From: an uncultured archaeon
GTDB taxonomy: Archaea; Asgardarchaeota; Lokiarchaeia; Sigyniarchaeales; SOKP01
Assembly: GCA_964486045.1 (NCBI GenBank)
Contig: CAZALK010000021.1
Span: 8,684 to 72,683 of the forward strand
Length of the DNA: 64,000 nucleotides
Direction: 5' to 3'
The notes below the pieces were generated by a model. That model was not told the origin of the DNA and did no database searches. It saw only the letters and a program-made list of their open reading frames with translations. Below, piece after piece: positions 36,556 to 63,168 of the stretch. Both the position numbers and the translations under genes were made by a program. Position 1 is the stretch's first letter. Each line of letters begins with the position of its first letter.

Positions 36556-36622
36556 AATTTCTCATCCCCTTTTCAATTTTGAATTGAAGGAGGTACTATA
36601 ATTGCAAATCTTATACCAATAT

Positions 36623-36655
36623 CTAACAAAAGAAGTTGTATTTAATCGTTTGGTT
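36623..36655 (-). promoter_or_regulatory. Conserved 33-nt upstream motif containing a TATA-like TTAAATA (sense strand)
   Basis: ctaacaaaagaagttgtatttaatcgtttggtt matches 41591..41623 at 28 of 33 positions. The TATA-like heptamer sits 84-90 nt upstream of the start codon in both genes. Confidence 0.4.
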
Positions 36656-36860
36656 TACTAAACTATCACATTATGTTTAAAAAATGTTTAATTTATTCTT
36701 TAACTCTTAATAGTGAAAATTCAATACAAATAATTTAGAAATGAAAAAATGGAATTGAGCTTGTAATTAAATTAAAATAAAAAAAACCTACCATGATTGT
36801 TTAAAGAGTAGAAAATTTATCTCATTCTAATGAAATATTTTTGTAATAATTATCCATTTA

Positions 36861-47030: not shown

Positions 47031-47777
47031 AATTCTTTTTATTCTTGTTAAGTCATCAATCGTTAAATTTAAAGTATTATCACCTTTCCTAAATTGCATT
47101 ACTCCCTCATGATTAATTCCTTTACAAAAATATCTCTTTGAATCATCAAGAATGACTTCCCTTTCATAAATTCTCAAATATTGATTATATTCCTGGATTA
47201 ATTGTTGAGTTTCTTTTTCATTGTGTTCCGTAATTGGTGAAAAGTAGTGCTTTACGCGAGAACGTATCTGTTGAGCAAATTGATCTAACGAAACTTCTTT
47301 TTTTATTATGTCTTTGATGGATATTGTAATCGATTTTAGATTATTTGGCATCGCATTACTTGAGTTATTTAAATTTACTCCCATTCCAATCAAAAGATAA
47401 TTTCTTCGAGGACTTACAATATAATCAATTAGGATTCCTGCAAGTTTTTTATTTTCATACAATAAATCATTTGGCCACTTAATTTGAACTACTAAATTAT
47501 ATTCCTCTTTAATAACTCGTGTTAGCATGATAGCAGTAAAATAATGAAATAGAGCTAATTGTGATTTATTTAAATCTAATGAAATAGAAATTCCAAGAGT
47601 TGCCCAAAATCCCCCCTCCGGGGAAACCCAATCATCTTCTCTCCTTCCACGCCCTTTAGTTTGGATTTTAGCAATTAATAATATTGATGGGTAATAATCA
47701 TTTTTTAGGTATTCAACTACAGCATCTTGGGTAGAGCTTGTTTTATCAATGTGAATAATCTTTATTTTAGAAAGCAT
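47025..47777 (-). CDS. birA: Biotin-[acetyl-CoA-carboxylase] ligase, no N-terminal HTH (group I)
   Basis: 250-aa ORF. It has TSSTQD, the biotin/ATP loop TKGRGRREDDWVSPEGG, and IKWPNDLLYENKKLAGIL. Confidence 0.8.
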   Translation of the reverse strand: MLSKIKIIHIDKTSSTQDAVVEYLKNDYYPSILLIAKIQTKGRGRREDDWVSPEGGFWATLGISISLDLNKSQLALFHYFTAIMLTRVIKEEYNLVVQIKWPNDLLYENKKLAGILIDYIVSPRRNYLLIGMGVNLNNSSNAMPNNLKSITISIKDIIKKEVSLDQFAQQIRSRVKHYFSPITEHNEKETQQLIQEYNQYLRIYEREVILDDSKRYFCKGINHEGVMQFRKGDNTLNLTIDDLTRIKRIL

Positions 47778-48100: not shown

Positions 48101-49672
48101 ATGATTCTAAAAGATAACGAGTCAAAAGACAACTTCAAAATTACTGAAAAACTGCAAGAGTTGAGAGAAGAATCCCGAATTGGAGGCGGAAAAGAACGTA
48201 TTGATACTCAACATAAGAAAGGTAAGCTAACAGCTCGAGAAAGGATTGAATTGTTAGTAGACTATGAGTCATTTATCGAAATTGGCTCGTTGGTTAAGCA
48301 TCGCTCCTACAAATTTGGATTAGAGAATAAAAGATTTCTTGGAGATGGAGTTGTCACTGGTTATGGAACAATAAATGGCCGAAAAGTGTTCATTTATAGC
48401 CAAGATTTTACAGTACTTGGTGGAACTATTGGAAAAGCTCATGCTCAAAAAATATGCAAAATTATGGATTTAGCATTAAAAATGGGATGTCCTGTGATCG
48501 GTCTAATAGATTCGGGAGGTGCTCGGATCCAAGAAGGCGTTGATGCATTAGATGGATTAGGAGATATATTTTATCGAAATGTACAGGCATCAGGAATTAT
48601 TCCTCAAATATCTGTAGTTTTAGGTACTTCTGCTGGAGGAGCTGCCTATAGTCCAGCATTAACCGATTTTCTTATTATGGGTGGAAAAAACGCCTTTATG
48701 TTTATCACAGGACCTCAAGTGGTTAAATCAGTAACGGGAGAAGATGTGTCATTTTTGGGATTAGGAGGCCCTGAAATTCACTCAACAATTTCTGGTGTTT
48801 GTCACAGAGTTGCGGATACTGAAGAAGAAGCACTAGAACTCGTTAGGAAATTATTAACTTACTTGCCATCAAATAATTTAGATGATCCCCCGTCCCCTTT
48901 AGAAAAATTTAATGCAATGGATCCTTATCTATTAAATAAAGTTGTGCCCGAAAGTGAAAATGAACCGTATGATATGGAAACATTAATTAATTTAGTTGTT
49001 GATCAAGAATCATTCTTCGAAATTTTCCCTAATTGGGCTAAAAATATCGTTATTGGGTTTGGAAGGATAGAGAATCAAACAGTGGGTATTATTGCTAACC
49101 AACCGCTATATCTAAGTGGTGCAATTGATTATAATGCATCTGATAAAGCCGCTAGGTTTATTCGATTTTGTGATTCATTCAATATTCCTCTAATAACACT
49201 TGTTGATGTTCCGGGATTTATACCAGGGATAAAACAAGAAAATTCAGGAATTATCAGACACGGCGCCAAATTAATTTATGCTTATTCTGAGGCAACTGTA
49301 GTAAAAATTACGGTAATTATCCGTAAAGCTTATGGAGGAGCATATATTGTAATGAACTCAAAACAGTTAGGTTCAGATATCAATTTAGCTTGGAATTCTG
49401 CTCAAATTGCTGTTATGGGTGCAGAAGGAGCTTGCAAAATTCTTTTTCGAAATCATTTAAAGGAGACAGAAGATCCTGATAAAATGTTAAAAGAATTCAC
49501 AGAAGAATACAGGAAAGAATTTTCTAATCCATATCATGTAGCTGAAAAGGGACAAATAGACAAAGTAATTTTTCCACATGAGACTCGTCTTGAAATCGTT
49601 AAAAGCTTGAAATTTTTTGAAACAAAACGTGATCAGTCTCCTAAGCGAAAACACGGGATTTCTCCTGTTTAA
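48101..49672 (+). CDS. Acyl-CoA carboxylase carboxyltransferase subunit (PccB/AccD-like, fused N- and C-CT halves)
   Basis: 523-aa ORF. It has GGGKERIDTQHKKGKLTARERI, GDGVVTGYGTINGRKVFIYSQDFTVLGGT, DSGGARIQEG, GTSAGGAAYSPALTDF, GRIENQTVGIIANQP, PLITLVDVPGF and RKAYGGAYIVM. Confidence 0.85.
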   Translation: MILKDNESKDNFKITEKLQELREESRIGGGKERIDTQHKKGKLTARERIELLVDYESFIEIGSLVKHRSYKFGLENKRFLGDGVVTGYGTINGRKVFIYSQDFTVLGGTIGKAHAQKICKIMDLALKMGCPVIGLIDSGGARIQEGVDALDGLGDIFYRNVQASGIIPQISVVLGTSAGGAAYSPALTDFLIMGGKNAFMFITGPQVVKSVTGEDVSFLGLGGPEIHSTISGVCHRVADTEEEALELVRKLLTYLPSNNLDDPPSPLEKFNAMDPYLLNKVVPESENEPYDMETLINLVVDQESFFEIFPNWAKNIVIGFGRIENQTVGIIANQPLYLSGAIDYNASDKAARFIRFCDSFNIPLITLVDVPGFIPGIKQENSGIIRHGAKLIYAYSEATVVKITVIIRKAYGGAYIVMNSKQLGSDINLAWNSAQIAVMGAEGACKILFRNHLKETEDPDKMLKEFTEEYRKEFSNPYHVAEKGQIDKVIFPHETRLEIVKSLKFFETKRDQSPKRKHGISPV

Positions 49673-49693
49673 TATTTATAATTGTTGATTTTT

Positions 49694-52600
49694 ATGAAGA
49701 AGAGAAAAGATGTTTTAGATATTTTAGGCAAGGGAAGGATTCCCATATGGGGTTATTCGCCAAAGGGTATAACTGATCCTGCACTTTCAATTGAAATTTG
49801 CCGAATGGGAGGTGTTGGTTTAGTTGATCTTGAAGGATTGAACATAAATCAATGCCAAACACTTCTTAATAAGTGTTTTACGTTAATGTCTTCTGATCAT
49901 TTATGGGGAATTAGAGTATCTACCAATGAAATTCTTAATTATCTTGAATTTCAAGATGTGGTCCCAATTATTATCTGTGCGTTTTCACCAGATTCAAAAG
50001 ATATTGCAAAGTTGAAAAAAACCTCAAATTTACTCCTTTCTGAAGTTTCTTATTTAGAAGAAGCTTATAAAAATGCAGATTGGGCTGAATTATTTCTTGT
50101 AAAAGGAAGTGAAGCAGGGGGAATGGTTGGTGTAAAAAATAGCTTTATTCTTATTCAAGAATTTTTTAAAGCTGGACTCTCTTTTGTAATCCAAGGGGGA
50201 TTTGGAGTATTCAATATCTCCTCAGCCTTTATTGGTGGTGCTTTAGGTGTAGTTGTAGAAAGCCAGCTATTTCTTCTTCCTGAATGTCCGCTAAGTCCTG
50301 AATTTAAAGATTATATCAAGACCATTGAAGAGACCGATTTTTACATTTTTAAAGAAACATCACGGTTTAATTACCGTTTAATTGGAAAGTTAGCTAATAA
50401 ATCTATTCGCTCATTAAAAGAAATTGAAAAAAAAGAATTTTCAAAACTCAATGAAGAATTCCATGCAGAACTTGGTAACCTAAAAGAGAAGCTTAAAACG
50501 AAAATAAATGAACTCGCAAATAATCAGAAAATTTATTCTGATCTTGAACCAAAACATTCTTGGCTACCTAGCGACCAAGGTATTACTTTTGCGAAATTTA
50601 TTCTCGATTCGTTCAATAATTTAGAAAATTTTTTACAGAGTATACCAAAGATAATTCAGAAACAGTTAGAAAGTGTTAAGGAACGGTGGCCGTTTGCGAA
50701 AAATTCTGATTTTGCCAAGAATTTTAATATCATTTATCCTGTTATTCAAGGTCCGATGGCGAATGTTTCTGATCACATTGCTTTTGCTACAAAAATTGCT
50801 GAAAATGGGGCACTTCCAATATTCGCTCTCGGTGGTTTACTGGAAAATGAAGCTTCTGCTTTATTGAGTGAAGCTAAATCGAGTAAATTATCTGAGACCT
50901 CATATGGATCAGGGATCATTGGCCTAGAGGCAGTTAAAGCTCGTAGGGAGGAGCATCTTAAGTTAATTTCTAAATTTGGCCCTAAAATCACACTAGTCGC
51001 GGCTGGATCCGTCGATTTAGGTTTACGAGTCAAAAATCTTGGAAATACCGTATTAATTCATACACCCGCTTTATCAATGTTCAAGGATGCCTTAAAAAAA
51101 CACCTTGATTTTATGATTTTAGAAGGGAGTGAGTGTGGAGGTCATTTTGGGATTCTTTCTTCTTTTATTTTATGGGAATGTATTTTGGAATATTTATATA
51201 TAAGCAAGCAAGAGAGAAAAGAAAAAGTCAATCTTATTTTCGCCGGTGGTATCATAAATGATATAAGCACCGCGATGCTTGCTGGCATGATTGGAGAGCA
51301 CCTTGATATTATTAACCCTGGAATTCAAATGGGTACTGCTTATTTATTGAGTGAAGAGATTGTTAACACTCAAGCATTATCACCAGTTTATCAAGCACTA
51401 TTATTGAATAATTCATGTACAACCGTAATTGGAACGAGCGTAAATACTCGTGCAAGAGTAATCCCTTCAGAATTTGCGTTTAATACTATAAAAAATGAAA
51501 ATTTACGGAAAACTCAAGGGATTTCTATTTCAGAACGAAAGGAAATGTTCGAAAAAGATAATTTAGGAGCATTAAGAATTGCTACAAAAGCAGAAATTTG
51601 GAATGAAAATCACATTGAAGGAAGTGGTACTACGCAATTTATTCCTACATCTAATAAAAGACAATTAACTGATGGGGCTTTTATGACAGGTGAATCAATT
51701 GCACTACAAAAAACATTAAGAAGCATATCTCAAATTCATTACGATGTCATAGAGGGAGGTAGAAAATCCTTTAATATAAAGGTATCTCAACTTTTTAATG
51801 AAATCTTGGAATACAAACCAAAGAAAAGTGAAAAAAAAATGGGAAGTGGTGTATCTTTTGGAAAAAAAGTTGCTATTATTGGGTTAGGTGGGATTTTTCC
51901 GGATGCTGAAAACATTCCAAAATTCTGGGAAAATATCAAAAATAAAAAATACTCAATTATAGAAGTTCCAAATGAAAGGTGGGATCCTGAAATATTCTAT
52001 AATAAAGATCACTCCGTCCCCGAAAAAACCTACACAAAAATCGGTGGATTTATCAAAAACTTTGAATTCAAGTCAATTAAATATCGCATCCCTCCAAAAA
52101 TGGCAGAAAGGATGGATTTAGTCCAAAAATTGGCTGTTAAAACTGCAGAAGAAGCACTTATCGATGCGGGGTATCCTACTAATGCGAAACAACGGTTACC
52201 TATTGCAACTATAGTTGGTAACTCCTCTGGAGGAGATGCTCAACGTCTCAGTAATAAACGCATAATTTTTAGTGAGATTAAATACAGAATTAACGAAGCT
52301 AGTTCTCAAAAGATTCTAAACCAAGATCAAAAAAATAATCTTCTAAACTTCCTTGAAGAGAAAATTGTAAAACAAATTCCAACGATTAATGAAGATTCCA
52401 TGCCCGGTGAATTATCAAATATTATTGCAGGCAGAGTAGCAAATGTATTTAATCTAACAGGCAAGAGTATGTCAATAGACGCTGCTTGTGCTTCAAGTTT
52501 AGCTGCTATCGATACTGCTATTAATGGGTTACTTGTGAAGGATTATGACGCTGTTTTAGTAGGTGGTTCAGATAGTTCAATGGATCCACAGACTTTCATA

Positions 52601-55600
52601 AAATTCTGTAAAATTGGGGCTTTATCTGAAAACGGTTCTTATCCTTTTGATGCTCGTGCAGATGGATTTATTATGGGGGAAGGAGCAGGATTTATGGTTT
52701 TAAGACTACTTGAGGATGCTATACGAGATAAAAATAAGATTTATGCTATCATTAGTGGATATGGAGGTTCTTCTGATGGAAAAGGAAAGGGAATTACAGC
52801 TCCAAACCCTGATGGACAAAGGTTAGCTATTGAGCGAGCTTTAAATGATAGTAATACCAAACCATCAGAGATTCAATATCTTGAATGTCATGGAACTTCT
52901 ACAATCGTTGGAGATGCTACTGAATTGAACGTACTAAAACAATTTTTCTCTGGCAGAGATATGAATCAAAAATTAGCGATTGGGTCAATAAAAAGTCAAA
53001 TTGGGCATCTCAAAAGTGCATCCGGTATCGCAGGTATCATCAAGAGTGTACTAGCATTACACCATAAGATAATTCCCCCTTCAGTAAATTATGTTACTCC
53101 TAACCCTTCAATAGATTGGGAGACAAGCCCATATTATGTTAATACTGAACCTATTAGTTGGATATCCCCTGAAGATAACATAAGAAGAGCAGGGGTATCT
53201 TCATTTGGATTTGGCGGAACTAATTATCATGTTATTCTTGAAGAATTTATTCCTCAATTATATGATGCAACTCCTTTTGCTAGTCAAAAAGATCCAATTC
53301 CCGATAATTTACTCGATTCTATTCCTTCTACTATTGCGGTTTCTCCAGAGCTTTGCTTTTTATTCAGCGGTCAAGGAAGCCAATATGTAGGAATGGCTAA
53401 AGAGTTATATCAAAAATATCAAATTATAAAGAATACACTTGACAATGCTAATGAAATATGCAAAAATTTTGGTGGATTCGATTTACTTGAAATAATATTC
53501 GGATCTCCAGAAATAACTGAAGAGGAAAGCTCAAACAAATTACGCCAAACTCAATATACTCAACCTGCTATTTATTCAGTTGAGATGGCGTTATATAACC
53601 TTTTTTATTCAAAAGGAATTATCCCGGGGTTAGTCGGAGGTCATAGTCTTGGAGAATTTGCAGCATTGGTTACTGCTGGTGTATTAAATTTTGAGGATGG
53701 TTTGAAAGTAGTAATAACTCGAGGAAAAGCTATGGCGGAATTACCCCCTGGAGTTGAATGTACTATGGCTGCTATCTTTGCATCTTCAGAAATTGTTGAA
53801 AAAACATTAAAGGAACTATCTGTAGAAAATGTTTCAATTTCTAATTATAATTCAACTTCACAAATAGTTATAGCAGGTGAAGTCTCTGAAATTGAGTCCG
53901 CAGTGAGTACTTTCTCAGAAAAAGGGATCCGGGCTATAAAATTAAACGTTTCAAATGCGTTTCACTCTAAATATGTTGCTCATGCTGAGGAAAAGTTGAA
54001 ATCATTTCTTAAATCAATCAAGTTTAACACCCCCAGAATTCCAGTATTTAGTAATGTTACTGGGAAAATCTACCCGGAAGATCCTGAAAAAATTAAATCA
54101 ATTCTTCTTAAACAAATTACATCTCCTGTAAGGTGGGTTGATGAAACTTTAAATATTTATCACCATGGGGGCAGAAAATTTCTGGAAATAGGACCGAAAA
54201 AAGCTCTGTTCTTCTTTACTAAAGATATTTTAAAGAAACATAAAAATATTGAAGTAAATTATACACTTTCACCAAAAGCTCCCGAAGGAGAACACATTCA
54301 GAAAATCCTTGAGCAGTTTAAGACTCTTGCACCAAAAAAATCCGTTGAACCTGTTAAGACTGCATTACAATCTCAACAAGTTTCTAAGTCAAGTTTAACT
54401 CCAACTTCTACTAGAGTTCCTACAACCCAATTTATTCCTAGATCTAATGATGAAATAAATAAAATAAGACAATTACCTTTCTTTAATGAATTTTTGGAAG
54501 AGCAAAAAGAATTATTATCTTCAGTTCTAATTCAAGGATTTCAAAGCTATATGAAGAAATATCAATCTTCTTTTAAACAACCGTCCACTTTAGATGGACC
54601 CAAATTCAATGCTGATCCTATTATGATAACTGGAGTAGGATTGGGACTTCCTGGAAAAAATCGGAATGTTTTTGATGATCAAAATATTGATGATATTCTC
54701 CACGGAATAAATTTAATTGAACCAGTAGGGAAAGAATTTGAAACTCAATTACTCCAACAGAATATCATTCGGTTAGAAAAATCACCAAATGGGAATGCTA
54801 CATTTCAACCTGTAGATGAATTATCTAAAGTTATACACCTTGCAGGGCAATTGGGAAAATTTAATCCCACCGATGATTATCAATTTGATGCTAAAATGCT
54901 AAATGCTTTAGATATTACTTATCAACTCGCAATTTGTGCTGGATATGATGCGTTAAAGGATGCGGGTATTCCTTTAGTGCGAACTAGAATTAAAACGTCT
55001 ACGGGTAAGATTTTACCTGGTGATTGGGTATTACCCGAAGATATTCAAGATGAGACAGGAATTGTCTTTGCATCCGCATTTCCGGGATTGGACAATTTCA
55101 CAGATGAGTTATCATCCAAATCTGATGGTGACGCTTCGGAGAGGGATAATAATTTTAACCGTGCATTTTTGTTTCGAGTATTATCAATGGGTCATTCTCA
55201 GTTTGCCCAATTAATAAAAGCAAAGGGCCCAAACACAGCCGTTAATGCAGCTTGTGCCTCTACACCTCAAGCTATAGGGGTTGCAGAAGATTGGATACGA
55301 ACAGGCAGATGTAAAAGGGTAATTGTAATTTCTGCTGATAATGTTACAAGCAAAAATCTTTTTCAATGGATTGGCGCTGGATTTCTAACAAGTGGGGCAG
55401 CAACAACACAATCTCGATGGGAAGATGCAGTTCTCCCATTTGGTAAAGGGAGAAATGGGATCATAATAGGTGCTGGAGCAGGTGCATTTGTTATTGAACA
55501 AGAGTCTGAAGCTAAAGCCCGAGGCGTAAAACCAATAGTAGAAATCCTTGGAACTTCTTTTGTAAATAGCGCATATCATGGAACTCGACTGGATAAAGCC

Positions 55601-58600
55601 CATATTAGTCGAAAATTAGATGAATTCGTTACAGAAATGGTGGAAAGGCATGGTATTACTAAAAATGAAATGGCTAATGAGGGAATGTTTGTAAGTCATG
55701 AAACATATTCCCCAGCTCGAGGAGGAAGTGCTGAATCTGAACTAGATGCTTTAGAACAAACTTTTGGTAAAAATGCTTATGATATAGTAATAGTCAATAC
55801 TAAAGGTTACACGGGTCATGCAATGGGAGCAGGAATTGAAGAAGCAGTAGCGATAAAATCCATGGAGAGGGGTATTATTCCTCCCGTAGCAAATTTGAAA
55901 AGAATTGATCCAAATTTTAAAAAATTTAAATTTGCCAAAGGTTCAAATGAAAGGAAAAAATATGCCCTACGTCTAGCTGCTGGGTTTGGTTCTCAACTCG
56001 CTCTTGTTTTGTTCCGTTTAGTTTCTTATAATAATCGGTTAGGTAAAATTGAGTATAGTCGTTGGCTTCAAAAAATAGGAGGAGGTATGAAGCATTTGTT
56101 TGATGATGGAAGAGTATTAAAGATGAACACAGAGCTTATTAAACCTACCCAAACATCTTTATCACCAAATTCAAAGGAAACTACTCAAAGATCAGATATT
56201 ATTGAAACGATTGATATCTCAAATCAAATCAAACAAATTATTTCATCAAAAACAGGCTATGATCCTGGCGATATTGAAGAAGATTATGATTTGGAAGAAG
56301 ACCTTGGAATTGATACCGTAAAGCAGGCAGAAATTTTTGGAGAAATTCGAGAAAAATGGAATATTGAAATTGATGATTCATTCAATTTAGCAGATTATCG
56401 AACAATTAATGCTATTGTTCAAATGCTTACTGAATTTTTGGATTCTGATACTTCCTCCAGTACAGTTGTTTTTAGTCCAGATAACAGACAACTTGAAGAA
56501 AAACTAATTCAGATTATTTCTGAAAAAACAGGGTATGACACCGAAGATATTGATGTGAATTTTGATCTGGAAGAAGATTTAGGTATCGATACTGTGAAAC
56601 AAGCAGAAATTTTTGGGGAAATGCGAAATTTTCTGAAGATCCCAGAAGAAACAGAAATAAATCTAGCAGGATTAAAAAGTATTAAAGACATAATTCAACA
56701 AATTCAAGAAAACTTAAATATCCAAAGTATAAAAACCGATACTGATGTTCCACAAAAAGACATAACTACGGAAATGGGTGAAACTTCAAATACAAAACAA
56801 GTGAGTAATGTGGTGAAGAAGATCATTGCCGACAAAACAGGCTATGAAATTTCGGATATTGAGGATTCTTATGACTTAGAAGAAGATTTGGGGATTGATA
56901 CAGTAAAACAAGCTGAGATTTTCGGTGAATTGCGAGAGTTTTATAATCTAGAAGAATCTATTGAGATCAATTTGACAGAAATACGCACACCTTCTGAGAT
57001 AACAAATTTTATTATGCAGTTTGTGAGTAAAACTCTAAAATTAGAGGAAGAAAAATTAGAGATCCCTATAAATATGGGAAAATCCTTAGAGAAACTGGAG
57101 GAGGACGTTGAGGAAGAGATTTACGTCTCACAAGTAATTCCTTCTCGTATTTTTAACCTACAATCTTCCAAAAAGATTCCAAAATTTAAGAATTTTGAAG
57201 CACTTATATTAAATATTAATTCAAGTTTATCAAATTACCAAAATTTACGTGAAGACTTCCAAAAAATAGGATTAAAAACTCAAATTTTCGACATTACTAG
57301 TGAAGAAAATTACATAAAAGATCTAAAAAATACAAAAAGTGAATCTCTTTTAGATGGTGATTTTAAAGTTATCATCCTAGTTGTTCCAGACAATACTCAA
57401 TATTCCCTCAATGATAGTTTGTCTTTTTTTGACAGTTTATTTATTATTTTTCAATCATTAAATATTTCTATTATAGAAAAAATCATTATTCTTTCTCCAG
57501 AAAGCTACTTCGGGTGGGAACAAGGGGCTAACGCTCTCTCTTCTAGTATTGGTGCTTTCATCAAATCTATTAATAGAGAGTTTCAAATACCAATCAAGCA
57601 CATTTACTCGGTGAATCCGGAGCAAATTAACCAAGAAATTTTAATATGGGATAATATTGAAGAGGTAGCCTATAAAGATAACATTCGGTATACATTGTTA
57701 AGAAAAAAAATAGAAGAATTTCCTAAACAAGGTAACTATTCAATAACAAAAGATGATGTATTATTGGCCACAGGAGGTGCCCAGGGAATCACTTTTGCTT
57801 GTATAGACGAATTGACGAATAGTATTAAACCACACCTGATATTACTAGGATTGGCCCCTTATGAGGATTCATTACATGAATACCTACATCAATCTCCAGA
57901 AAAATTAGAGGAAAAGAAGCAAGAAATAACTATTTTGATGAAGTCTAAACAGGAAAAGGTAACTCCTGTTATGATTAAAAGAGAATGGAAAAATTTTCAA
58001 GATAAATTGGATACTCTTCGAAACGTAGAAAGTTTAAGGAATAAGGGTTTAGAAGTCCAATATTACGCAGTTGATGTAACCAACGACGAAAAAATGCAAA
58101 AAACATTCCAACAAATCCATAAAGACGTTGAAAAACCAATAACGATCGTCGTTCATGGAGCTGGTATCGAAGAATCAAAGAGTTTTCTGAAGAAAAATTT
58201 GAAGATGGCCCATTTAGTTGTTAATGTTAAAGTAGGAGGCTTTTTAAATGTTCTCAAGCATTTAGAACTTCAAAACATGAAATTATTTATGGCATTTTCA
58301 TCAGTTGCTGGGCGTTATGGCAATCAAGGTCAAATTGATTATGCTTTTGCAAATGCTTATTTATCAAGGCTGGCTTGGGACTATTCTCAGCGAAAAATCC
58401 CATTCTTAGCTATAGATTGGACAGCTTGGGCAGGTATTGGAATGGCCACTCAGGGTTCAACCCTACAAATCCTTACTCAAGCAGGAGTTGTCCCTGTCCC
58501 ACCACAAATTGGTGTTAATATATTTTCCAAATTACTATTAAATAATTTCAAAGGAGAATATATTGTTGGTGGAAAACTGGGGATTTTTGAAGAAAAACTA

Positions 58601-60187
58601 AATGTTACTAAAACAATTAACAAATTGGAATTTCCGATGATAGATAAAATGAATTATCAACCAGATTTTATCATTGGTTCAAACACCCTAAACTCTGAAT
58701 TTGACATTTATTTACACGATCATCAAATTCAGCAAAAACCAGTATTCCCTGGTGTAATGGTTCTGGAAACTTTCGCAGAATTCTATAACAATGTATTTGA
58801 AAAACCCATGGCTTCTATTTCAAAAGTTAACTTCCACACTCCCTTAAAAATTCCATTAAACAAGCCAGTTGAAGTTGAACTGAAGTATAATTATTCTAAC
58901 AATGAAATTACTCTTTTATCGAAGACTTATCCTCTTGTTTTGAAAGGAAAACCCCTAATTAAGGAACACTTCAATGCAGAGCTTGGAAAATCAATAAAAA
59001 AAATGAAATGGAAAAAGGAACCTATTTTAGAACCATTAATCCCTCTACTTGATAAAAACGATATATACGAGATTTTCTTCCATGGAAAAAGTTTCCAAGT
59101 GTTAGATGAAATTATTCAACTAGAAAATGGAAAAATAATAGCAAAAGTTGATATTCCAACAACTTCACTAACCAGAAATAGTGAAGGAGATAAATTTCAA
59201 CTCGAACCATTAGCAATAGAAAGTATTTTTCAAACAGCCGCATTGTTTGATGTTATTGTTAATAATCACATATCTCTTCCCTCTAAAATTTCCACTCTTG
59301 AAATATTATCAAACCAAAAACCGAAATACATAGTTGCTAAATTTTTGAAAAAAGATAAAGAACGTTCATACTATAATTCTGTGATCTTGGATGAAAATCA
59401 CGAGATTATTATGAAAGTTTCAAATCTGGAAATTATCCATTCTCCACTTTCATTTGACATATCAGAAAGTCTATCTAATTATTTAGCTACATTAAAAGAA
59501 TATTATCTTCTTAAAAATGGTAAGAACTCTAACATTTTTCACATCCTTCCTATTGAGAAATTAAAACTTTTATATCAAACAGATCCAAAATTTTTAGAAA
59601 CTCATCTAACTGAATATGAAATTGATGCTTCCAAAAGATTTAGAAATGAAAAACGAAAACTCGAATATTTTTCAGGAATTATTACTGCGAAAGAATGTTA
59701 TATAAGACAATCACCTGAAATTCTCTCTTATCACGATATTGAAATTCAAAAGAATGAAAAAGGAAAACCTTTCTATTATTCAAACAATACTAAGCAGAAA
59801 ATCCCAATTAATCTTTCAATTAGCCATTCACATGAATTTTCTGTAGCAATCATGAGTAAAAACCAAGTTGGGATCGATTTAGAGATAATAGAATCACGAT
59901 CTCCTTCTTTCTATAAAGAAGTGTTTACTGAATCTGAGATAGAGTTAATTTCGGAAAATAATAAATTAGGTACTCTATATTTTACTGCTAAAGAAGCCTT
60001 TTCAAAAGCGATTGGGGAAGGTTTTAATGTTAATTTTCGTGATGTTGAATTAAAGTATAATGAAAAGCAGAAGAAATTTTCTTTGATCGCTAAAAAAGAT
60101 CAACCAGAATTCAATAAAAAATTCAAAAAATTAATATTAAAATCTGAATTCACTGAAAAATATGTGATATCTTATTGCGAGATTTAA
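49694..60187 (+). CDS. Type I iterative FAS/PKS-like megasynthase (PUFA-synthase-like): NMO-like barrel, ER, KS, AT, KS, ACP x3, psiKR/KR, DH, PPTase
   Basis: A single uninterrupted frame runs 49682..60187 (3501 codons from TTG). ATG at 49694 is the likelier start, 21 nt after the carboxyltransferase stop. Domain motifs are listed in the separate domain features. Residue numbers follow the 49682 ORF-track translation. Confidence 0.9.
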   Translation: MKKRKDVLDILGKGRIPIWGYSPKGITDPALSIEICRMGGVGLVDLEGLNINQCQTLLNKCFTLMSSDHLWGIRVSTNEILNYLEFQDVVPIIICAFSPDSKDIAKLKKTSNLLLSEVSYLEEAYKNADWAELFLVKGSEAGGMVGVKNSFILIQEFFKAGLSFVIQGGFGVFNISSAFIGGALGVVVESQLFLLPECPLSPEFKDYIKTIEETDFYIFKETSRFNYRLIGKLANKSIRSLKEIEKKEFSKLNEEFHAELGNLKEKLKTKINELANNQKIYSDLEPKHSWLPSDQGITFAKFILDSFNNLENFLQSIPKIIQKQLESVKERWPFAKNSDFAKNFNIIYPVIQGPMANVSDHIAFATKIAENGALPIFALGGLLENEASALLSEAKSSKLSETSYGSGIIGLEAVKARREEHLKLISKFGPKITLVAAGSVDLGLRVKNLGNTVLIHTPALSMFKDALKKHLDFMILEGSECGGHFGILSSFILWECILEYLYISKQERKEKVNLIFAGGIINDISTAMLAGMIGEHLDIINPGIQMGTAYLLSEEIVNTQALSPVYQALLLNNSCTTVIGTSVNTRARVIPSEFAFNTIKNENLRKTQGISISERKEMFEKDNLGALRIATKAEIWNENHIEGSGTTQFIPTSNKRQLTDGAFMTGESIALQKTLRSISQIHYDVIEGGRKSFNIKVSQLFNEILEYKPKKSEKKMGSGVSFGKKVAIIGLGGIFPDAENIPKFWENIKNKKYSIIEVPNERWDPEIFYNKDHSVPEKTYTKIGGFIKNFEFKSIKYRIPPKMAERMDLVQKLAVKTAEEALIDAGYPTNAKQRLPIATIVGNSSGGDAQRLSNKRIIFSEIKYRINEASSQKILNQDQKNNLLNFLEEKIVKQIPTINEDSMPGELSNIIAGRVANVFNLTGKSMSIDAACASSLAAIDTAINGLLVKDYDAVLVGGSDSSMDPQTFIKFCKIGALSENGSYPFDARADGFIMGEGAGFMVLRLLEDAIRDKNKIYAIISGYGGSSDGKGKGITAPNPDGQRLAIERALNDSNTKPSEIQYLECHGTSTIVGDATELNVLKQFFSGRDMNQKLAIGSIKSQIGHLKSASGIAGIIKSVLALHHKIIPPSVNYVTPNPSIDWETSPYYVNTEPISWISPEDNIRRAGVSSFGFGGTNYHVILEEFIPQLYDATPFASQKDPIPDNLLDSIPSTIAVSPELCFLFSGQGSQYVGMAKELYQKYQIIKNTLDNANEICKNFGGFDLLEIIFGSPEITEEESSNKLRQTQYTQPAIYSVEMALYNLFYSKGIIPGLVGGHSLGEFAALVTAGVLNFEDGLKVVITRGKAMAELPPGVECTMAAIFASSEIVEKTLKELSVENVSISNYNSTSQIVIAGEVSEIESAVSTFSEKGIRAIKLNVSNAFHSKYVAHAEEKLKSFLKSIKFNTPRIPVFSNVTGKIYPEDPEKIKSILLKQITSPVRWVDETLNIYHHGGRKFLEIGPKKALFFFTKDILKKHKNIEVNYTLSPKAPEGEHIQKILEQFKTLAPKKSVEPVKTALQSQQVSKSSLTPTSTRVPTTQFIPRSNDEINKIRQLPFFNEFLEEQKELLSSVLIQGFQSYMKKYQSSFKQPSTLDGPKFNADPIMITGVGLGLPGKNRNVFDDQNIDDILHGINLIEPVGKEFETQLLQQNIIRLEKSPNGNATFQPVDELSKVIHLAGQLGKFNPTDDYQFDAKMLNALDITYQLAICAGYDALKDAGIPLVRTRIKTSTGKILPGDWVLPEDIQDETGIVFASAFPGLDNFTDELSSKSDGDASERDNNFNRAFLFRVLSMGHSQFAQLIKAKGPNTAVNAACASTPQAIGVAEDWIRTGRCKRVIVISADNVTSKNLFQWIGAGFLTSGAATTQSRWEDAVLPFGKGRNGIIIGAGAGAFVIEQESEAKARGVKPIVEILGTSFVNSAYHGTRLDKAHISRKLDEFVTEMVERHGITKNEMANEGMFVSHETYSPARGGSAESELDALEQTFGKNAYDIVIVNTKGYTGHAMGAGIEEAVAIKSMERGIIPPVANLKRIDPNFKKFKFAKGSNERKKYALRLAAGFGSQLALVLFRLVSYNNRLGKIEYSRWLQKIGGGMKHLFDDGRVLKMNTELIKPTQTSLSPNSKETTQRSDIIETIDISNQIKQIISSKTGYDPGDIEEDYDLEEDLGIDTVKQAEIFGEIREKWNIEIDDSFNLADYRTINAIVQMLTEFLDSDTSSSTVVFSPDNRQLEEKLIQIISEKTGYDTEDIDVNFDLEEDLGIDTVKQAEIFGEMRNFLKIPEETEINLAGLKSIKDIIQQIQENLNIQSIKTDTDVPQKDITTEMGETSNTKQVSNVVKKIIADKTGYEISDIEDSYDLEEDLGIDTVKQAEIFGELREFYNLEESIEINLTEIRTPSEITNFIMQFVSKTLKLEEEKLEIPINMGKSLEKLEEDVEEEIYVSQVIPSRIFNLQSSKKIPKFKNFEALILNINSSLSNYQNLREDFQKIGLKTQIFDITSEENYIKDLKNTKSESLLDGDFKVIILVVPDNTQYSLNDSLSFFDSLFIIFQSLNISIIEKIIILSPESYFGWEQGANALSSSIGAFIKSINREFQIPIKHIYSVNPEQINQEILIWDNIEEVAYKDNIRYTLLRKKIEEFPKQGNYSITKDDVLLATGGAQGITFACIDELTNSIKPHLILLGLAPYEDSLHEYLHQSPEKLEEKKQEITILMKSKQEKVTPVMIKREWKNFQDKLDTLRNVESLRNKGLEVQYYAVDVTNDEKMQKTFQQIHKDVEKPITIVVHGAGIEESKSFLKKNLKMAHLVVNVKVGGFLNVLKHLELQNMKLFMAFSSVAGRYGNQGQIDYAFANAYLSRLAWDYSQRKIPFLAIDWTAWAGIGMATQGSTLQILTQAGVVPVPPQIGVNIFSKLLLNNFKGEYIVGGKLGIFEEKLNVTKTINKLEFPMIDKMNYQPDFIIGSNTLNSEFDIYLHDHQIQQKPVFPGVMVLETFAEFYNNVFEKPMASISKVNFHTPLKIPLNKPVEVELKYNYSNNEITLLSKTYPLVLKGKPLIKEHFNAELGKSIKKMKWKKEPILEPLIPLLDKNDIYEIFFHGKSFQVLDEIIQLENGKIIAKVDIPTTSLTRNSEGDKFQLEPLAIESIFQTAALFDVIVNNHISLPSKISTLEILSNQKPKYIVAKFLKKDKERSYYNSVILDENHEIIMKVSNLEIIHSPLSFDISESLSNYLATLKEYYLLKNGKNSNIFHILPIEKLKLLYQTDPKFLETHLTEYEIDASKRFRNEKRKLEYFSGIITAKECYIRQSPEILSYHDIEIQKNEKGKPFYYSNNTKQKIPINLSISHSHEFSVAIMSKNQVGIDLEIIESRSPSFYKEVFTESEIELISENNKLGTLYFTAKEAFSKAIGEGFNVNFRDVELKYNEKQKKFSLIAKKDQPEFNKKFKKLILKSEFTEKYVISYCEI
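49733..50326 (+). other. Megasynthase domain 1: short NMO/FabK-like TIM-barrel lacking the conserved His
   Basis: About aa 18-215. It has ICRMGGVGLVDL, LWGIRV, LVKGSEAGGMVG (Met148, ATG 50123..50125, sits where the family has GGH), VIQGGFG, and GALGVVVESQLFLLPEC. Confidence 0.55.
50726..51751 (+). other. Megasynthase domain 2: FMN-type enoyl reductase (NMO / FabK / PfaD-like)
   Basis: About aa 349-690. It has NIIYPVIQGPMANVSDHIAFATKIAENGALPIFALGG, ILEGSECGGHFG (His488, CAT 51143..51145), IFAGGIINDISTAMLAGM and IQMGTAYLLSEE. Confidence 0.75.
51863..53245 (+). other. Megasynthase domain 3: ketosynthase KS1 (Cys-His-His)
   Basis: It has KKVAIIGLGGIFPDA, IDAACASSLAAI (Cys936, TGT 52487..52489), YLECHGTSTIVGD (His1070, 52889..52891), SQIGHLKSASG (His1109, 53006..53008) and SSFGFGGTNYHVILEE. 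Confidence 0.9.
53351..54215 (+). other. Megasynthase domain 4: acyltransferase (malonyl-CoA:ACP transacylase type)
   Basis: It has LCFLFSGQGSQYVGM, QTQYTQPAIY, GHSLGEFAAL (Ser1322, AGT 53645..53647), NVSNAFHSKYV and PVRWVD. Confidence 0.9.
54614..56020 (+). other. Megasynthase domain 5: second ketosynthase KS2, divergent but with an intact Cys-His-His
   Basis: It has DPIMITGVGLGLPG, GPNTAVNAACASTPQAIG (Cys1858, TGT 55253..55255), FVSHETYSPARGGSAESELDAL (His aligned to the CHGT of KS1), NTKGYTGHAMGAG and LAAGFGSQLALVLF. Confidence 0.8.
56216..56440 (+). other. Megasynthase domain 6a: ACP repeat 1 (PfaA-type) with Thr at the expected Ser position
   Basis: The sequence is IISSKTGYDPGDIEEDYDLEEDLGIDTVKQAEIFGEIRE. 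Thr2212 is encoded by ACC at 56315..56317. Confidence 0.8.
56492..56716 (+). other. Megasynthase domain 6b: ACP repeat 2 with Thr at the expected Ser position
   Basis: The sequence is IISEKTGYDTEDIDVNFDLEEDLGIDTVKQAEIFGEMRN. Thr2304 is encoded by ACT at 56591..56593. Confidence 0.8.
56801..57036 (+). other. Megasynthase domain 6c: ACP repeat 3 with Thr at the expected Ser position
   Basis: The sequence is IIADKTGYEISDIEDSYDLEEDLGIDTVKQAEIFGELRE. Thr2407 is encoded by ACA at 56900..56902. Confidence 0.8.
57361..58590 (+). other. Megasynthase domain 7: ketoreductase (structural psiKR sub-domain + catalytic KR)
   Basis: The psiKR part is FKVIILVVPDN...IIILSPESYFGWEQGANALSSSIGAFIKSINREF. The catalytic part starts at about 57752 with VLLATGGAQGITFACI, VVHGAGI and FSSVAGRYGNQGQIDYAFANAYL (Tyr2887, TAT 58340..58342). 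Confidence 0.8.
58636..59460 (+). other. Megasynthase domain 8: PKS-type (double hot-dog) dehydratase
   Basis: YLHDHQIQQKPVFPGVMVLE follows the HxxxGxxxxP-type motif with Gln in place of Gly (His3014, CAT 58721..58723). A later LEPLAIESIFQTAALF corresponds to the DxxxQ-like motif, here ExxxQ. Confidence 0.7.
59607..60184 (+). other. Megasynthase domain 9: C-terminal 4'-phosphopantetheinyl transferase
   Basis: It has RFRNEKRKLEYFSGIITAKECYIR, KNEKGKPFY, LSISHSHEFSVAIMS, VGIDLEIIESR, FTESEIELI and LYFTAKEAFSKAIGEGF. The last two match the PPTase motifs GIDxE and W/FxxKEAxxKxxG. Confidence 0.8.
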
Positions 60188-60220: not shown

Positions 60221-61000
60221 ATGGAAAAAATCATAATAGAAATTAAGGTACGCTCTGAAATTTTACACAGTATTCTTTTTTTACCTGAATCCAAGAATGG
60301 TAAACTCTTCCCTCTCGTTATCCGTGTTAATGGGTTGCCAGGAAAATCACCCGAAGAAGATGAGCAAAGATTTGCACAATATTTTATAGAAAATAACATT
60401 GCTTATTTCACTTACGATCATCAAGGAGTAAGAACGAGTACTGGAGTTTTCACCTATTATGATGCTCAAGCAAATATTGAAGAAGTAATAAATATTTTAG
60501 TCCATAATCCAAAAATTAATCCATTAAAAATTGGATTGCTGGGTGAAAGTTTTGGTGGGGCAATGATTCTTTGCCATGCCGTTAGAGATAAACGAGTAAA
60601 ATGTCTTGCTGTTCGCTCGCCAGTTTTTGACACCGAAATTATCCCTAAAAATCCGTTGTTTAAGTTTTTCATAAGAGCGTTGACTCGAAATAAGGAAATG
60701 AGGTTTGCAGATATTGATTTTAAGAAAGAATATTCTAAACAAACTAAGCAATTTAATCCTGACAAATTAGCTAATTTTTTAACAAAACCATTTTATCTAA
60801 TCGCAGGAAATAAAGATGCGTTATTCCCAGAAAAAGGATTTCATGAGCTTTTTAACAAAGTTAAATCTAAGGAGAAAAAAATTGAGATACTTGATGGGGC
60901 GAACCATAATTTTACTGATAAAAATCATTTTCAAACAATGTGTGAGAAGGTCGTTGAATTTTTTAATATTCATCTAGTATCAAATAATAAAAATCTATAA
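60221..61000 (+). CDS. Alpha/beta-hydrolase (candidate thioesterase/releasing enzyme for the megasynthase)
   Basis: 259-aa ORF starting 33 nt after the megasynthase stop. The nucleophile elbow is LLGESFGGAM, the acid candidate is AGNKDALFP, and the His candidate is DGANHNF. A thioesterase role is inferred from position only. Confidence 0.6.
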   Translation: MEKIIIEIKVRSEILHSILFLPESKNGKLFPLVIRVNGLPGKSPEEDEQRFAQYFIENNIAYFTYDHQGVRTSTGVFTYYDAQANIEEVINILVHNPKINPLKIGLLGESFGGAMILCHAVRDKRVKCLAVRSPVFDTEIIPKNPLFKFFIRALTRNKEMRFADIDFKKEYSKQTKQFNPDKLANFLTKPFYLIAGNKDALFPEKGFHELFNKVKSKEKKIEILDGANHNFTDKNHFQTMCEKVVEFFNIHLVSNNKNL

Positions 61001-61013
61001 AGAGAGAATATTC

Positions 61014-61490
61014 ATGCAAAGACAAGTCAAATTTCGCGGAAGAGACTATATCATCACTCCGCTAGACGATGGAAAATTAAAGGTTGATGATCATATTTAT
61101 TCCCCAATAGTGATTCAAGAGACTGCAAAATTATATCGAGTGACATTTGAGGATTGCCAGTTTAATTTGGAACTTATTGATGGAAAATTGTTTTTAGAGG
61201 GTGAAGAAATTGATATTGAAATAAAACCCTATTTAAAAGCAGTAGATTCTGGTTCTGCAAGCCAAGTAGCGAAAATGGTTATAGTAAGGGCTCCTATTCC
61301 CGGGAAAATTTTACAAATTTTAACACGGGAGAACGAACGTGTTGAAAAAGAACAGCTAATTCTTATATTAGAAGCGATGAAAATGAAAAATAGGATATTA
61401 TCTCCTATAAAGGGTACTATTACACAAATTTTTGTTGATGTTGATGAGAATGTTGGACAAGATCAACAGTTAATTAAAATTGAAAATTAG
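61014..61490 (+). CDS. Biotin carboxyl carrier protein (biotinyl domain) with an unrecognised N-terminal ~80 aa
   Basis: 158-aa ORF starting 13 nt after the hydrolase stop. The C-terminal biotinyl domain is APIPGKILQILTRENERVEKEQLILILEAMKMKNRILSPIKGTITQIFV. The biotinyl-Lys123 of the AMKM motif is AAA at 61380..61382. Confidence 0.85.
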   Translation: MQRQVKFRGRDYIITPLDDGKLKVDDHIYSPIVIQETAKLYRVTFEDCQFNLELIDGKLFLEGEEIDIEIKPYLKAVDSGSASQVAKMVIVRAPIPGKILQILTRENERVEKEQLILILEAMKMKNRILSPIKGTITQIFVDVDENVGQDQQLIKIEN

Positions 61491-61500
61491 ATTTTGTTAC

Positions 61501-62979
61501 TTATCGGACCTGCTCAATTTTAGCATAATCCCGCCATTTAGTAGATGTTTTTGAGATAGTTTGAATTGGCTGAATTGAATAATTAAGCTCTTTGACGAAT
61601 TGAAAAACCGCTGCTAACTTTTTTCTTTCAAGATCTTTCAAATCCTTTATAATGTTTGTTCGAACTAAGAAGTCGGTGGATAGATCCCCTTTTTTAAATT
61701 CTTTTGTTTCTACTATTACTTTATGCAAGTCTAAATTGGTGTTAATCCCTGAAATGGCTAATTCTTTTAAAGCACTAATGGAAAGATTTATTGCTCTCTT
61801 CCTTGTTTTCCCCCAAACTATTAATTTCCCAATTAATGAATCAAAATTGTGAGGAATTACATAATTTGGATATATATGACTATCAAATCGGACTTTTGGG
61901 CCACCTGGAACGATTAAGCGAGTAATTTTCCCATTCTGAGGCATGAACGAATTATTAGGATCTTCAGCATTTATTCGAAATTCAATCGCGTGACCGTTAA
62001 ATGAAATTTCCTCTTGTGTGAAGCTTAAAGGTTTGTTTGAAGCGATACTTAATTGTTCTTCAACTAAATCTATACCTGTTACCATTTCAGTAACTACATG
62101 TTCCACTTGGATCCTTGGGTTTACTTCATTAAAATAGAGCTTGTTATCCTTCCAAAGAAATTCAGCTGTACCTACATTTGAATATCCTAATTCACGGGCT
62201 AATAAGCATGTTTTTTCCCCTAAATCATTAACGATTTCTCTCGGTAAAAATGAAGGGGCTTCCTCAATAAGTTTTTGATGCGATCGTTGGATCGTACATT
62301 CCCGATCCCCTAAATGGACGATATTCCCAAAATTATCTCCCATAAATTGAATTTCTACATGGCGGGGAGCATTAACTGATTTTTCAATTAATACTTCTTC
62401 ACGACCAAAATATTTTAAGGCAATTAATTGGCATCCCTCCATAGCAATCTTCAAATCATCCTCAGCTTCCACAATTTCCATTCCTCGACCTCCACCTCCG
62501 AAAGCTGCCTTAATAATTATAGGATAACCAATTTTATTCGCAATTGTTATTGCTTCTTTTAATGTTTTTACAAATCCATCTGAACCAGGTAGTACTGGTA
62601 ACCCAACTTTTTCACCAAGTTTTTTGGCCTGAACCTTATTACCTAAGAAATCAATAATATCCGGGCTAGGTCCTATAAAGGTTTTTCCCAATTTTATTAT
62701 TTCTCTAGCAAATTCTGCATTTTCACTTAAAAACCCATATCCGGGATGGACAGCATCAGCCTTAGAACGCTCAATTATGTCAAGTAGTTTTGGAATGTTT
62801 AAATAAGTACACTCAACTGACTCCTCTCCAATGCAATATGCTTCATCTGCCATTTTTACATGTAAAGAATCTTTGTCTTCTTCACAAAATACAGCAATGG
62901 ACCTTAAGTTTTTTATCCGGCAAGCACGTATCACTCGAACGGCGATTTCTCCTCGATTAGCAATTAATACTGAATGCAT
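61501..62979 (-). CDS. accC: Biotin carboxylase (ATP-grasp) subunit of acyl-CoA carboxylase
   Basis: The ORF runs 61501..62991, with ATG at 62979 (MHSVLIANRGEIAVRVIRA). It has HPGYGFLSENAEFA, IIKAAFGGGGRGM, HVEIQFMGD, ERECTIQRSHQKLIEEAP, GTAEFL, NPRIQVEHVVTE and EFRINAEDP. It has a C-terminal extension of about 45 aa. Its stop lies 10 nt from the BCCP stop (convergent). Confidence 0.9.
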   Translation of the reverse strand: MHSVLIANRGEIAVRVIRACRIKNLRSIAVFCEEDKDSLHVKMADEAYCIGEESVECTYLNIPKLLDIIERSKADAVHPGYGFLSENAEFAREIIKLGKTFIGPSPDIIDFLGNKVQAKKLGEKVGLPVLPGSDGFVKTLKEAITIANKIGYPIIIKAAFGGGGRGMEIVEAEDDLKIAMEGCQLIALKYFGREEVLIEKSVNAPRHVEIQFMGDNFGNIVHLGDRECTIQRSHQKLIEEAPSFLPREIVNDLGEKTCLLARELGYSNVGTAEFLWKDNKLYFNEVNPRIQVEHVVTEMVTGIDLVEEQLSIASNKPLSFTQEEISFNGHAIEFRINAEDPNNSFMPQNGKITRLIVPGGPKVRFDSHIYPNYVIPHNFDSLIGKLIVWGKTRKRAINLSISALKELAISGINTNLDLHKVIVETKEFKKGDLSTDFLVRTNIIKDLKDLERKKLAAVFQFVKELNYSIQPIQTISKTSTKWRDYAKIEQVR

Positions 62980-63168
62980 CACAAAAATCAAAATGAAATT
63001 TAATTAATAACGTTAATTACTTGTTTGATTAAATAATTATGTGTTTTATTAAAAATTGATGATTTTTTTAATATTAGATAAAAATTAAATTAGTTAAAGA
63101 AGCTTCTATTAATTATTAATCCACTTCTAAACAAGATTTTGAAGATAGTAAATTAGAAATAAGTATAA

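Follow-up and report, generated by a model that had tools for sequence, protein, structure and literature searches.

Can an acyl carrier protein (ACP) domain be loaded through a threonine? Attachment of 4′-phosphopantetheine to a serine is treated as invariant for the carriers of fatty-acid, polyketide and non-ribosomal peptide synthesis, an assumption that the protein family described here contradicts. The question is raised by a 64,000-nucleotide stretch of DNA from an uncultured Asgard archaeon (assembly GCA_964486045.1, contig CAZALK010000021.1, positions 8,684 to 72,683; the whole stretch is called the window below), which encodes a megasynthase with three tandem ACP repeats. The three carriers are best explained as functional acyl carriers in an iterative type-I synthase that resembles those of fatty acids and polyketides, with predicted enoyl reductase (ER), ketosynthase (KS), acyltransferase (AT), ketoreductase (KR) and dehydratase (DH) domains in the order ER-KS-AT-KS2-ACP3-KR-DH. 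Each carrier has a Thr that is probably the phosphopantetheine acceptor, loaded by the enzyme's own Sfp-type phosphopantetheinyl transferase (PPTase). The open reading frame (ORF) and its repeats are located as follows.

49682..60187, + strand: megasynthase ORF, 3501 aa from a TTG at 49682 (ORF list, translation, Pfam)
56204..56437, + strand: ACP repeat 1, Thr codon ACC at 56315-56317 (PF00550 38.3 bits; PDB alignment; AlphaFold2 model)
56480..56713, + strand: ACP repeat 2, Thr codon ACT at 56591-56593 (PF00550 25.7 bits; family profile 83 bits)
56789..57022, + strand: ACP repeat 3, Thr codon ACA at 56900-56902 (PF00550 26.9 bits; family profile 86 bits)

Read in the frame of the megasynthase ORF, the ACP core is DLEEDLGIDTVKQAEIFGE in all three repeats, and the residue after the core Asp is Thr each time, encoded by ACC (56315), ACT (56591) and ACA (56900). 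The repeats share 47-55% protein identity and 59-61% DNA identity over 78 aa. Despite 11-13 differences per 57 nt in each pair, all of them synonymous, the 19-aa core is identical in the three repeats. The first-pass annotation of this DNA, made from its letters alone, had reported the identical cores and the three codons, and had proposed that Thr is kept at the protein level while synonymous sites drift. Both statements are borne out by the translation and the codon check, as is its description of an intact surrounding frame by the ORF and its Pfam domains. Apart from the rarity of the feature, nothing favors an artefact of sequencing, assembly or annotation, or a recent inactivating mutation that was copied from one repeat to another, and such an explanation is practically negligible. 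It is refuted by the three codons, by repeats that are only about 50% identical and by the identical megasynthase protein recorded on two contigs, one of which is ENA ZHAO22-1_SAMN11268109 scaffold_48. Thr is also present in independent metagenome-assembled genomes (MAGs), complete genomes and cultured isolates from different sequencing groups. The annotation was thus right to dismiss a sequencing error or a very recent copy.

The Thr occupies the Ser column of known carriers. All three repeats exceed the gathering score of PF00550 (PP-binding), which is 20.8 bits. In an ungapped phmmer alignment against all PDB chains, 'eedlgidTvkqaei' lies on 'esdlgidSvsva' of PigH, 'ddlgadSldl' of an ACP and 'ddldidSlsm' of AcpM, so that the repeat Thr is paired with the Ser of solved ACPs. 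An AlphaFold2 model of ACP1, calculated from an alignment of 18 family domains, has a mean pLDDT of 93.1 and helices at residues 2-17, 38-52 and 68-77, with Thr38 opening helix II. Foldseek superimposes the model on solved ACPs with a TM score of 0.87 and a root-mean-square deviation of 1.5-1.7 Å. The model therefore has the helical-bundle ACP fold with the acceptor position at the N-terminus of helix II, and both alignment and model place Thr, and no different residue, at the attachment position that the annotation had pointed to. The canonical Ser of the (D/H)S(L/I) phosphopantetheine motif is replaced by Thr in the three repeats and in nearly all family members.

The invariant columns of the family ACP alignment are T17, G18, Y19, E31, L34, G35, D37, T38, V39, K40, Q41, E43 and R49. 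No other Ser is conserved in this alignment, in agreement with the annotation, which had seen none elsewhere in the motif. We considered T17 as an alternative acceptor and rejected it, since it is part of a TGY motif that is also present in Ser-type relatives (the all-Ser ACPs of Heimdallarchaeota). A search with the family hidden Markov model (HMM) down to E = 10 found no further ACP-like ORF in the 64-kb window, and Pfam found no additional PP-binding domain within the megasynthase protein. The three repeats are thus the sole carriers of a synthase in which all the other modules are present, which favors Thr as the acceptor.

Is the Thr peculiar to this gene? A word-indexed homologue search with the tri-ACP segment as the query gave 445 proteins, and the best 120 of these all have LE(A/E/G)(D/E)LG(I/V)DTVKQAE. 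In the species-representative genomes of GTDB, at least 599 stretches match the Thr-type pattern. With one ACP repeat as the query, HMMER was run exhaustively on 1.84 billion cluster representatives and gave 3614 matches at E≤1e-3 and 1612 at E≤1e-10. Among 635 ACP domains from the 150 best of these proteins and three Thr-type word-search proteins, 440 have Thr and 185 have Ser, the latter mostly of the PfaA-type GIDSIKRVE. We also collected a KS2-plus-ACP set with a Kouleothrix segment over KS2 and three ACPs as the query, which is partly ACP-biased. Thr is present in 376 of its 380 ACP domains, the remaining 4 being alignment gaps, and the set takes in proteins of Korobacteraceae and Bryobacteraceae. 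At 82 loci, the 236 ACP domains include 226 with Thr, 5 with Ser and 1 with Gly, and the Thr codons are ACG (114), ACC (86), ACT (15) and ACA (11). Homologues are thus overwhelmingly Thr rather than uniformly Ser, which was the check that the annotation had proposed.

Among the matches listed in the GTDB scan, the nearest relatives of the window are MAGs of Promethearchaeota and Hodarchaeota, with ACP domains that are 80-83% identical and also have Thr. Archaeal hosts of Thr-type ACPs include Promethearchaeota, Hodarchaeota, Heimdallarchaeota and Poseidoniales, and bacterial hosts include Myxococcota, Acidobacteriota, Gemmatimonadota, Chloroflexota, Elusimicrobia and many Actinomycetota. Cultured hosts include Amycolatopsis sp. 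NPDC021455, Nonomuraea rosea JCM 17326 and Planobispora takensis NBRC 109077. On the basis of overlap-resolved domain matches, Thr-type ACPs are nearly confined to one architecture, KS1-AT-KS2-ACPn-KR-DH, as a single polypeptide or as split genes, and acetyl-CoA carboxylase components are present at 26 of the 40 related loci with a full 20 kb. The Thr and PfaA types differ along helix II as a whole, with T-V-K-Q-A-E in the former and S-I-K-R-V-E in the latter. As judged from these sequences, Thr is characteristic of a synthase family found widely in bacteria and archaea and not of one gene or one MAG. Within the main clade, it is kept far more strictly than neutral Ser/Thr exchange would permit, given that one nucleotide change turns ACN into TCN or AGY.

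Ser and Thr also interchange within the family. Enzymes of Heimdallarchaeaceae (P0235, P0181, L007) have S-T-S arrays with one fused PPTase; Ca. Heimdallarchaeum aukensis (L007, CP084166.1) and H. endolithica are among the carriers of such arrays. The Thr domain of these arrays is the one closest to the window ACPs. Two Myxococcota enzymes (L005 and L006) have S,T,T arrays. An all-Ser enzyme from Heimdallarchaeota (P0166, MCY3414055.1) has GIDSVKVAEIF and the same architecture as the Thr enzymes, and a KS1 neighbor-joining tree places it deep within the Thr clade. Some sister ACPs have LEADLGIDSVKQAEI, which differs from the Thr motif by the Ser alone. Because Ser and Thr interchange at the exact position inside the family, the simplest reading of these sequences is that both do the same job at this site.

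Two all-Thr enzymes with the layout KS1-KS1-AT-ACP×4 (P0200 and P0206) lie outside the main Thr clade, beside Ser-type enzymes, in the KS1 tree. Ser may have changed to Thr independently in this group, or the rooting of the tree may have produced the placement. In some arrays (P0157, P0163, P0220, P0168, P0173 and L052), one ACP-like domain is degenerate, with Asp, Gln, Gly, Ala or Pro in place of the acceptor and a helix-II motif that has decayed. It often stands immediately ahead of the KR and may be a conserved non-carrier 'pseudo-ACP'.

Which enzyme could load a Thr? The C-terminal domain of the megasynthase matches AcpS, human AASDHPPT and Sfp in the PDB search, and its two halves align to AcpS. 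It has two ACPS-like lobes in one chain (Pfam ACPS ×2, AASDHPPT_N), as expected for the Sfp type, and residues equivalent to Sfp H90, D107, E109, E151 and K155 are present in an alignment to a manually entered Sfp reference sequence. The equivalents of D107, E151 and K155 are identical in every aligned PPTase of the clusters, whereas that of E109 is Glu in 49 of 53 and that of H90 is His in 48 of 53. A PPTase lies within 10 kb at 30 of the 40 full-length related loci (full 20 kb), and 10 of these are fusions; it is fused in the window and at loci L004, L007 and L011. In L007, there is a second copy of the PPTase, hydrolase and biotin carboxyl carrier protein genes. To our knowledge, archaea generally lack ACP and AcpS, and the fused PPTase of an all-Thr enzyme therefore has no other obvious substrate.

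We propose the following course for the reaction. Malonyl-CoA would be supplied to the synthase by the products of the neighboring acetyl-CoA carboxylase genes. The hydroxyl group of the Thr at the N-terminus of helix II, instead of that of a Ser, would take 4′-phosphopantetheine from CoA, in a transfer catalyzed by the enzyme's own Sfp-type PPTase, which is a C-terminal fusion here. The product would be O-(4′-phosphopantetheinyl)-threonine, and its thiol arm would then shuttle malonyl and growing acyl chains among the KS, KR, DH and ER domains, as in fatty-acid and polyketide synthases. Possible reasons for a preference for Thr are orthogonality to housekeeping PPTases or ACP hydrolases, or a greater resistance of Thr phosphodiesters to β-elimination.

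Among the three explanations offered by the annotation, modification of Thr by the PPTase is the best supported because of the fusion and synteny of the PPTase and the natural Ser/Thr interchange. No adaptation of the PPTase itself was identified. We lean slightly toward the broader claim that O-(4′-phosphopantetheinyl)-threonine is a natural, unrecognized carrier modification made by a dedicated Sfp-type PPTase, that it is standard in the whole synthase family and that Thr is positively selected.

Several points weigh against loading of the Thr by the cognate PPTase. We found no biochemistry (mass spectrometry, structure or genetics) of any family member in the literature searched. The word-indexed search and the GTDB genome scan are biased to DTVKQ words and the corresponding pattern; the Ser/Thr proportions were based instead on the exhaustive HMMER search and the KS2-plus-ACP set. 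The KS1 neighbor-joining tree, which places the all-Ser enzyme P0166 inside the Thr clade, is unbootstrapped and midpoint-rooted. A comparison of 48 PPTases from Thr clusters with those of P0166 and the mixed Heimdallarchaeum enzymes revealed no feature that explains Thr acceptance. The sole invariant column of the Thr-cluster PPTases that differs in P0166 is a change from Gly to Ala at the position of Sfp G105 (n = 1). This Ala stands immediately before the catalytic (I/V)D×E motif, whereas Gly is present in all 48 Thr-cluster PPTases and in Sfp, and the difference is only suggestive; Gly at this position is the general PPTase consensus. Two more columns that differ in P0166 (Sfp positions 40 and 74) show only 83-90% conservation in the PPTases of Thr clusters. 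Spinach ACP-I S38T and E. coli ACP S36T are reportedly not modified by E. coli AcpS. If so, Thr acceptance is no default property of PPTases, and a Thr-accepting PPTase would be a real specialization.

Such a failure of canonical AcpS, if the reports are right, would also fit carriers that are never loaded, that is, structural or decoy domains in enzymes that build their chains on a separate Ser-type ACP or on CoA thioesters. The degenerate ACP-like domains (P0157, P0163, P0220, P0168 and P0173), which indicate that non-acceptor folds are tolerated in the family, would fit as well. Those domains lose the motif, whereas Thr and the whole DLGIDTVKQAE face of helix II are invariant in hundreds of domains from many phyla. 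Neither the protein nor the window nor the related loci hold a further carrier, the PPTase is fused or adjacent, and tandem arrays of 3-6 copies are retained, as in PfaA, where ACP copy number scales output. We regard unloaded carriers as highly improbable. The inactive-carrier option of the annotation is likewise set aside, given that Thr is conserved across phyla and the enzyme has no other carriers.

At 10 of the 40 full loci, no PPTase was detected within 10 kb at the sensitivity used, which weighs against loading by a linked PPTase and would be compatible with carriers that are loaded otherwise, with a different prosthetic group, at a different residue or by a different enzyme. The ACPs of citrate lyase and malonate decarboxylase, for example, carry a group of the phosphoribosyl-dephospho-CoA type. 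Against such a loading, the linked PPTase is of the ordinary Sfp type and has its full set of catalytic residues, and Pfam and NCBIfam revealed no gene for an alternative prosthetic-group transferase among the annotated neighbors in the window. The alignment offers no other conserved Ser, Thr or Lys as a candidate except T17 of the TGY motif, which is common to the Ser-type relatives. An alternative loading is thus very unlikely, if marginally less so than no loading at all, and attachment of phosphopantetheine to the Thr by the cognate PPTase is the reading that we retain.

What does the enzyme around these carriers look like? The Pfam domain order of the megasynthase is ER-ER-KS1-AT-KS2-ACP×3-KR-DH-PPTase. 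The deposited ENA gene call starts at the ATG at 49694 (MKKRKD...) and gives 3497 aa, so that the public record holds the ATG version. The domains other than the ACPs are as follows.

49739..51589, + strand: two regions of the nitronate-monooxygenase/FabK-like enoyl-reductase type, at about aa 20-300 and aa 345-636 (Pfam NMO ×2; NCBIfam FabK TIGR03151 on aa 345-636)
51863..53251, + strand: KS1 ketosynthase (Pfam ketoacyl-synt, Ketoacyl-synt_C and KAsynt_C_assoc; motif alignment)
53357..54268, + strand: malonyl-type AT (Pfam Acyl_transf_1 163 bits; NCBIfam FabD 251 bits)
54749..56131 (approximate), + strand: KS2, a KS-like domain between the AT and the ACPs (second ketoacyl-synt stretch, ACP_syn_III match; position kept in relatives)
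57764..58432, + strand: KR (Pfam KR 102 bits)
58676..59431, + strand: DH of the polyketide synthase (PKS) type (Pfam PKS_DH_N, PS-DH)
59549..60184, + strand: C-terminal Sfp-type, two-lobed 4′-phosphopantetheinyl transferase domain (Pfam ACPS ×2, AASDHPPT_N; motifs ISHSH, GIDLE and TAKEAFSK)

In a motif alignment to a manually entered FabF reference sequence, the Cys-His-His triad of KS1 is intact (DAACASS, ECHGTST and QIGHLKS). KS2 also retains a full Cys-His-His set (NAACAST, VSHETYS and YTGHAMG) and may be a second active ketosynthase, although the corresponding domain is called a chain-length factor ('CLF') in the description of Type R synthases (discussed below).

The genes around the megasynthase include the following.

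47025..47777, - strand: biotin/lipoate protein ligase (Pfam BPL_LplA_LipB)
48101..49672, + strand: carboxyltransferase subunit of an acyl-CoA carboxylase, a putative source of malonyl-CoA (Pfam Carboxyl_trans 616 bits; NCBIfam)
60221..61000, + strand: α/β-hydrolase, a candidate chain-releasing thioesterase (Pfam Hydrolase_4, Peptidase_S9; same position in L004, L007 and L011)
61014..61490, + strand: biotin carboxyl carrier protein (NCBIfam models for this protein; Biotin_lipoyl)
61501..62991, - strand: biotin carboxylase (Pfam Biotin_carb_N, CPSase_L_D2, Biotin_carb_C)

Window positions 42705-62991 form a self-contained lipid island around the megasynthase, with genes for an acyl-CoA dehydrogenase, the β- and α-subunits of an electron-transfer flavoprotein (ETF), a thiolase, the biotin ligase, the carboxyltransferase, the megasynthase, the α/β-hydrolase, the biotin carboxyl carrier protein and the biotin carboxylase. 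The carboxyltransferase, hydrolase, carrier protein and carboxylase genes are found again in loci of Hodarchaeota and Heimdallarchaeota. Archaea are generally held to lack ACP-dependent fatty-acid synthesis, which makes the island notable. The synthase is directly preceded by acyl-CoA dehydrogenase genes both in the window (42705-43895, with ETF) and at 3376-5041 of L002, a split cluster of Actinomycetes with no fused ER. The dehydrogenase/ETF pair might replace or help the enoyl-reduction step. Elsewhere in the window, 32043-33236 (- strand) encodes a 397-aa protein with a small GTPase domain of the Ras/Roc/Arf family, a eukaryotic-signature type typical of Asgard archaea, in keeping with the taxonomic placement. 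The regions 33433-41522 and 9217-11115 (both - strand) encode three large histidine kinases (1553, 1040 and 632 aa) in which PAS domains are repeated, up to about five times per protein.

What would follow if the Thr is the acceptor? The Ser rule is embedded in the PROSITE phosphopantetheine pattern and in the Ser→Ala controls that are used as 'dead carriers'. If phosphopantetheine is attached to Thr, this would be a new post-translational modification, and the PPTase–carrier pair may be orthogonal to Sfp and AcpS and of use in labeling and pathway engineering. Genome-mining rules that score non-Ser carriers as inactive would then misjudge a widespread family, which inhabits abundant environmental lineages (Acidobacteriota, Chloroflexota, Poseidoniales and Asgard archaea). 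The Asgard island, with genes for malonyl-CoA supply and a synthase, bears on whether the archaeal relatives of eukaryotes have acyl lipids of the bacterial type. The cultured carriers Planobispora takensis NBRC 109077, Nonomuraea rosea JCM 17326 and Amycolatopsis sp. make the question directly testable, and mass spectrometry suffices.

How does the window enzyme compare with known systems? Like PfaA, it has tandem ACPs of about 75 aa with linkers, the EKTGY...DLE.DLGID frame, the domain order KS-AT...ACPn-KR-DH and an acceptor at the start of helix II. Classical PfaA proteins, with KS-AT-ACPn-KR and GIDSIKRVE, are among the Ser-type matches. PfaA has Ser in GIDSIKRVEI, whereas the Thr family has GIDTVKQAEI. 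The NCBIfam PfaA model TIGR02813 scores 938.4 bits against the megasynthase, under its cut-off of 1010.1, and the layout also departs from that of PfaA systems, which have the order KS-MAT-ACPn-KR(-DH) and the partners PfaB, PfaC (a FabA-type DH) and PfaD, in the KS2 inserted between the AT and the ACPs and in the fused ER and PPTase. No match to a FabA-type DH was found by Pfam or NCBIfam in the megasynthase or its annotated neighbors, and the window enzyme appears to lack the FabA-type DH/isomerase domains of PfaA systems.

The layout of the window enzyme, KS1-AT-KS2-ACP3-KR-DH, corresponds to that of the Type R secondary lipid synthases, which have been described as KS-MAT-CLF-ACP(3-6)-KR with a downstream PPTase and, in Koribacter, an acetyl-CoA carboxylase gene (Shulse & Allen 2011, PMC3098273). 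Type R was reported from Acidobacteria, Elusimicrobia and Chloroflexi, a host range that it has in common with the Thr family, and is uncharacterized (PMC3098273). Its PPTase motif P1b′ is hShxH (PMC3098273), which is matched by ISHSH in the fused PPTase of the window. The words 'threonine' and 'serine' have 0 occurrences in the text of that report (PMC3098273). Unlike the described Type R enzymes, that of the window is archaeal (Asgard) and has N-terminal ERs, a fused PPTase and a 'CLF' with Cys-His-His. The match to Type R is based on layout, hosts and PPTase motif, and the sequence comparison covered family-level relatives only (Korobacteraceae and Bryobacteraceae).

A report of 2020 mentions a PKS in a Heimdallarchaeota MAG but gives no analysis of its carrier domains. 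Our searches of the full-text literature, which leave most subscription journals outside, turned up no account of carrier domains of the Thr type or of phosphopantetheine linked to Thr; within this incomplete coverage, the statement of the annotation that no Thr-using carrier family is known agrees with the literature. The synthase family was catalogued in 2011, and its Thr attachment site with an own PPTase is apparently undescribed.

The enediyne PKSE enzymes (SgcE/CalE8 type) are iterative type-I synthases that follow the order KS-AT-ACP-KR-DH and end in a built-in PPTase, by which the enzyme activates its own ACP. Set side by side by description only, the window enzyme is similar in its iterative type-I KS-AT-ACP-KR-DH plan and C-terminal PPTase, and PKSE differs in its one Ser-type ACP and in lacking both KS2 and ER. 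Among solved structures, the tandem ACPs of PigH (PDB 5y08; E 3.6e-11) match ACP1 best and have the TGY...LE.DLGIDSV motif and the tandem layout in common with it. PigH differs in the Ser at the site and in its role in prodigiosin biosynthesis rather than in a PfaA-like synthase. The closest precedents for the residue itself are the engineered S38T of spinach ACP-I and S36T of E. coli ACP, which likewise have Thr in the attachment position and are normal ACPs in other respects. These are laboratory mutants, whereas the Thr of the window enzyme is natural, kept by selection and paired with an Sfp-type PPTase of its own.

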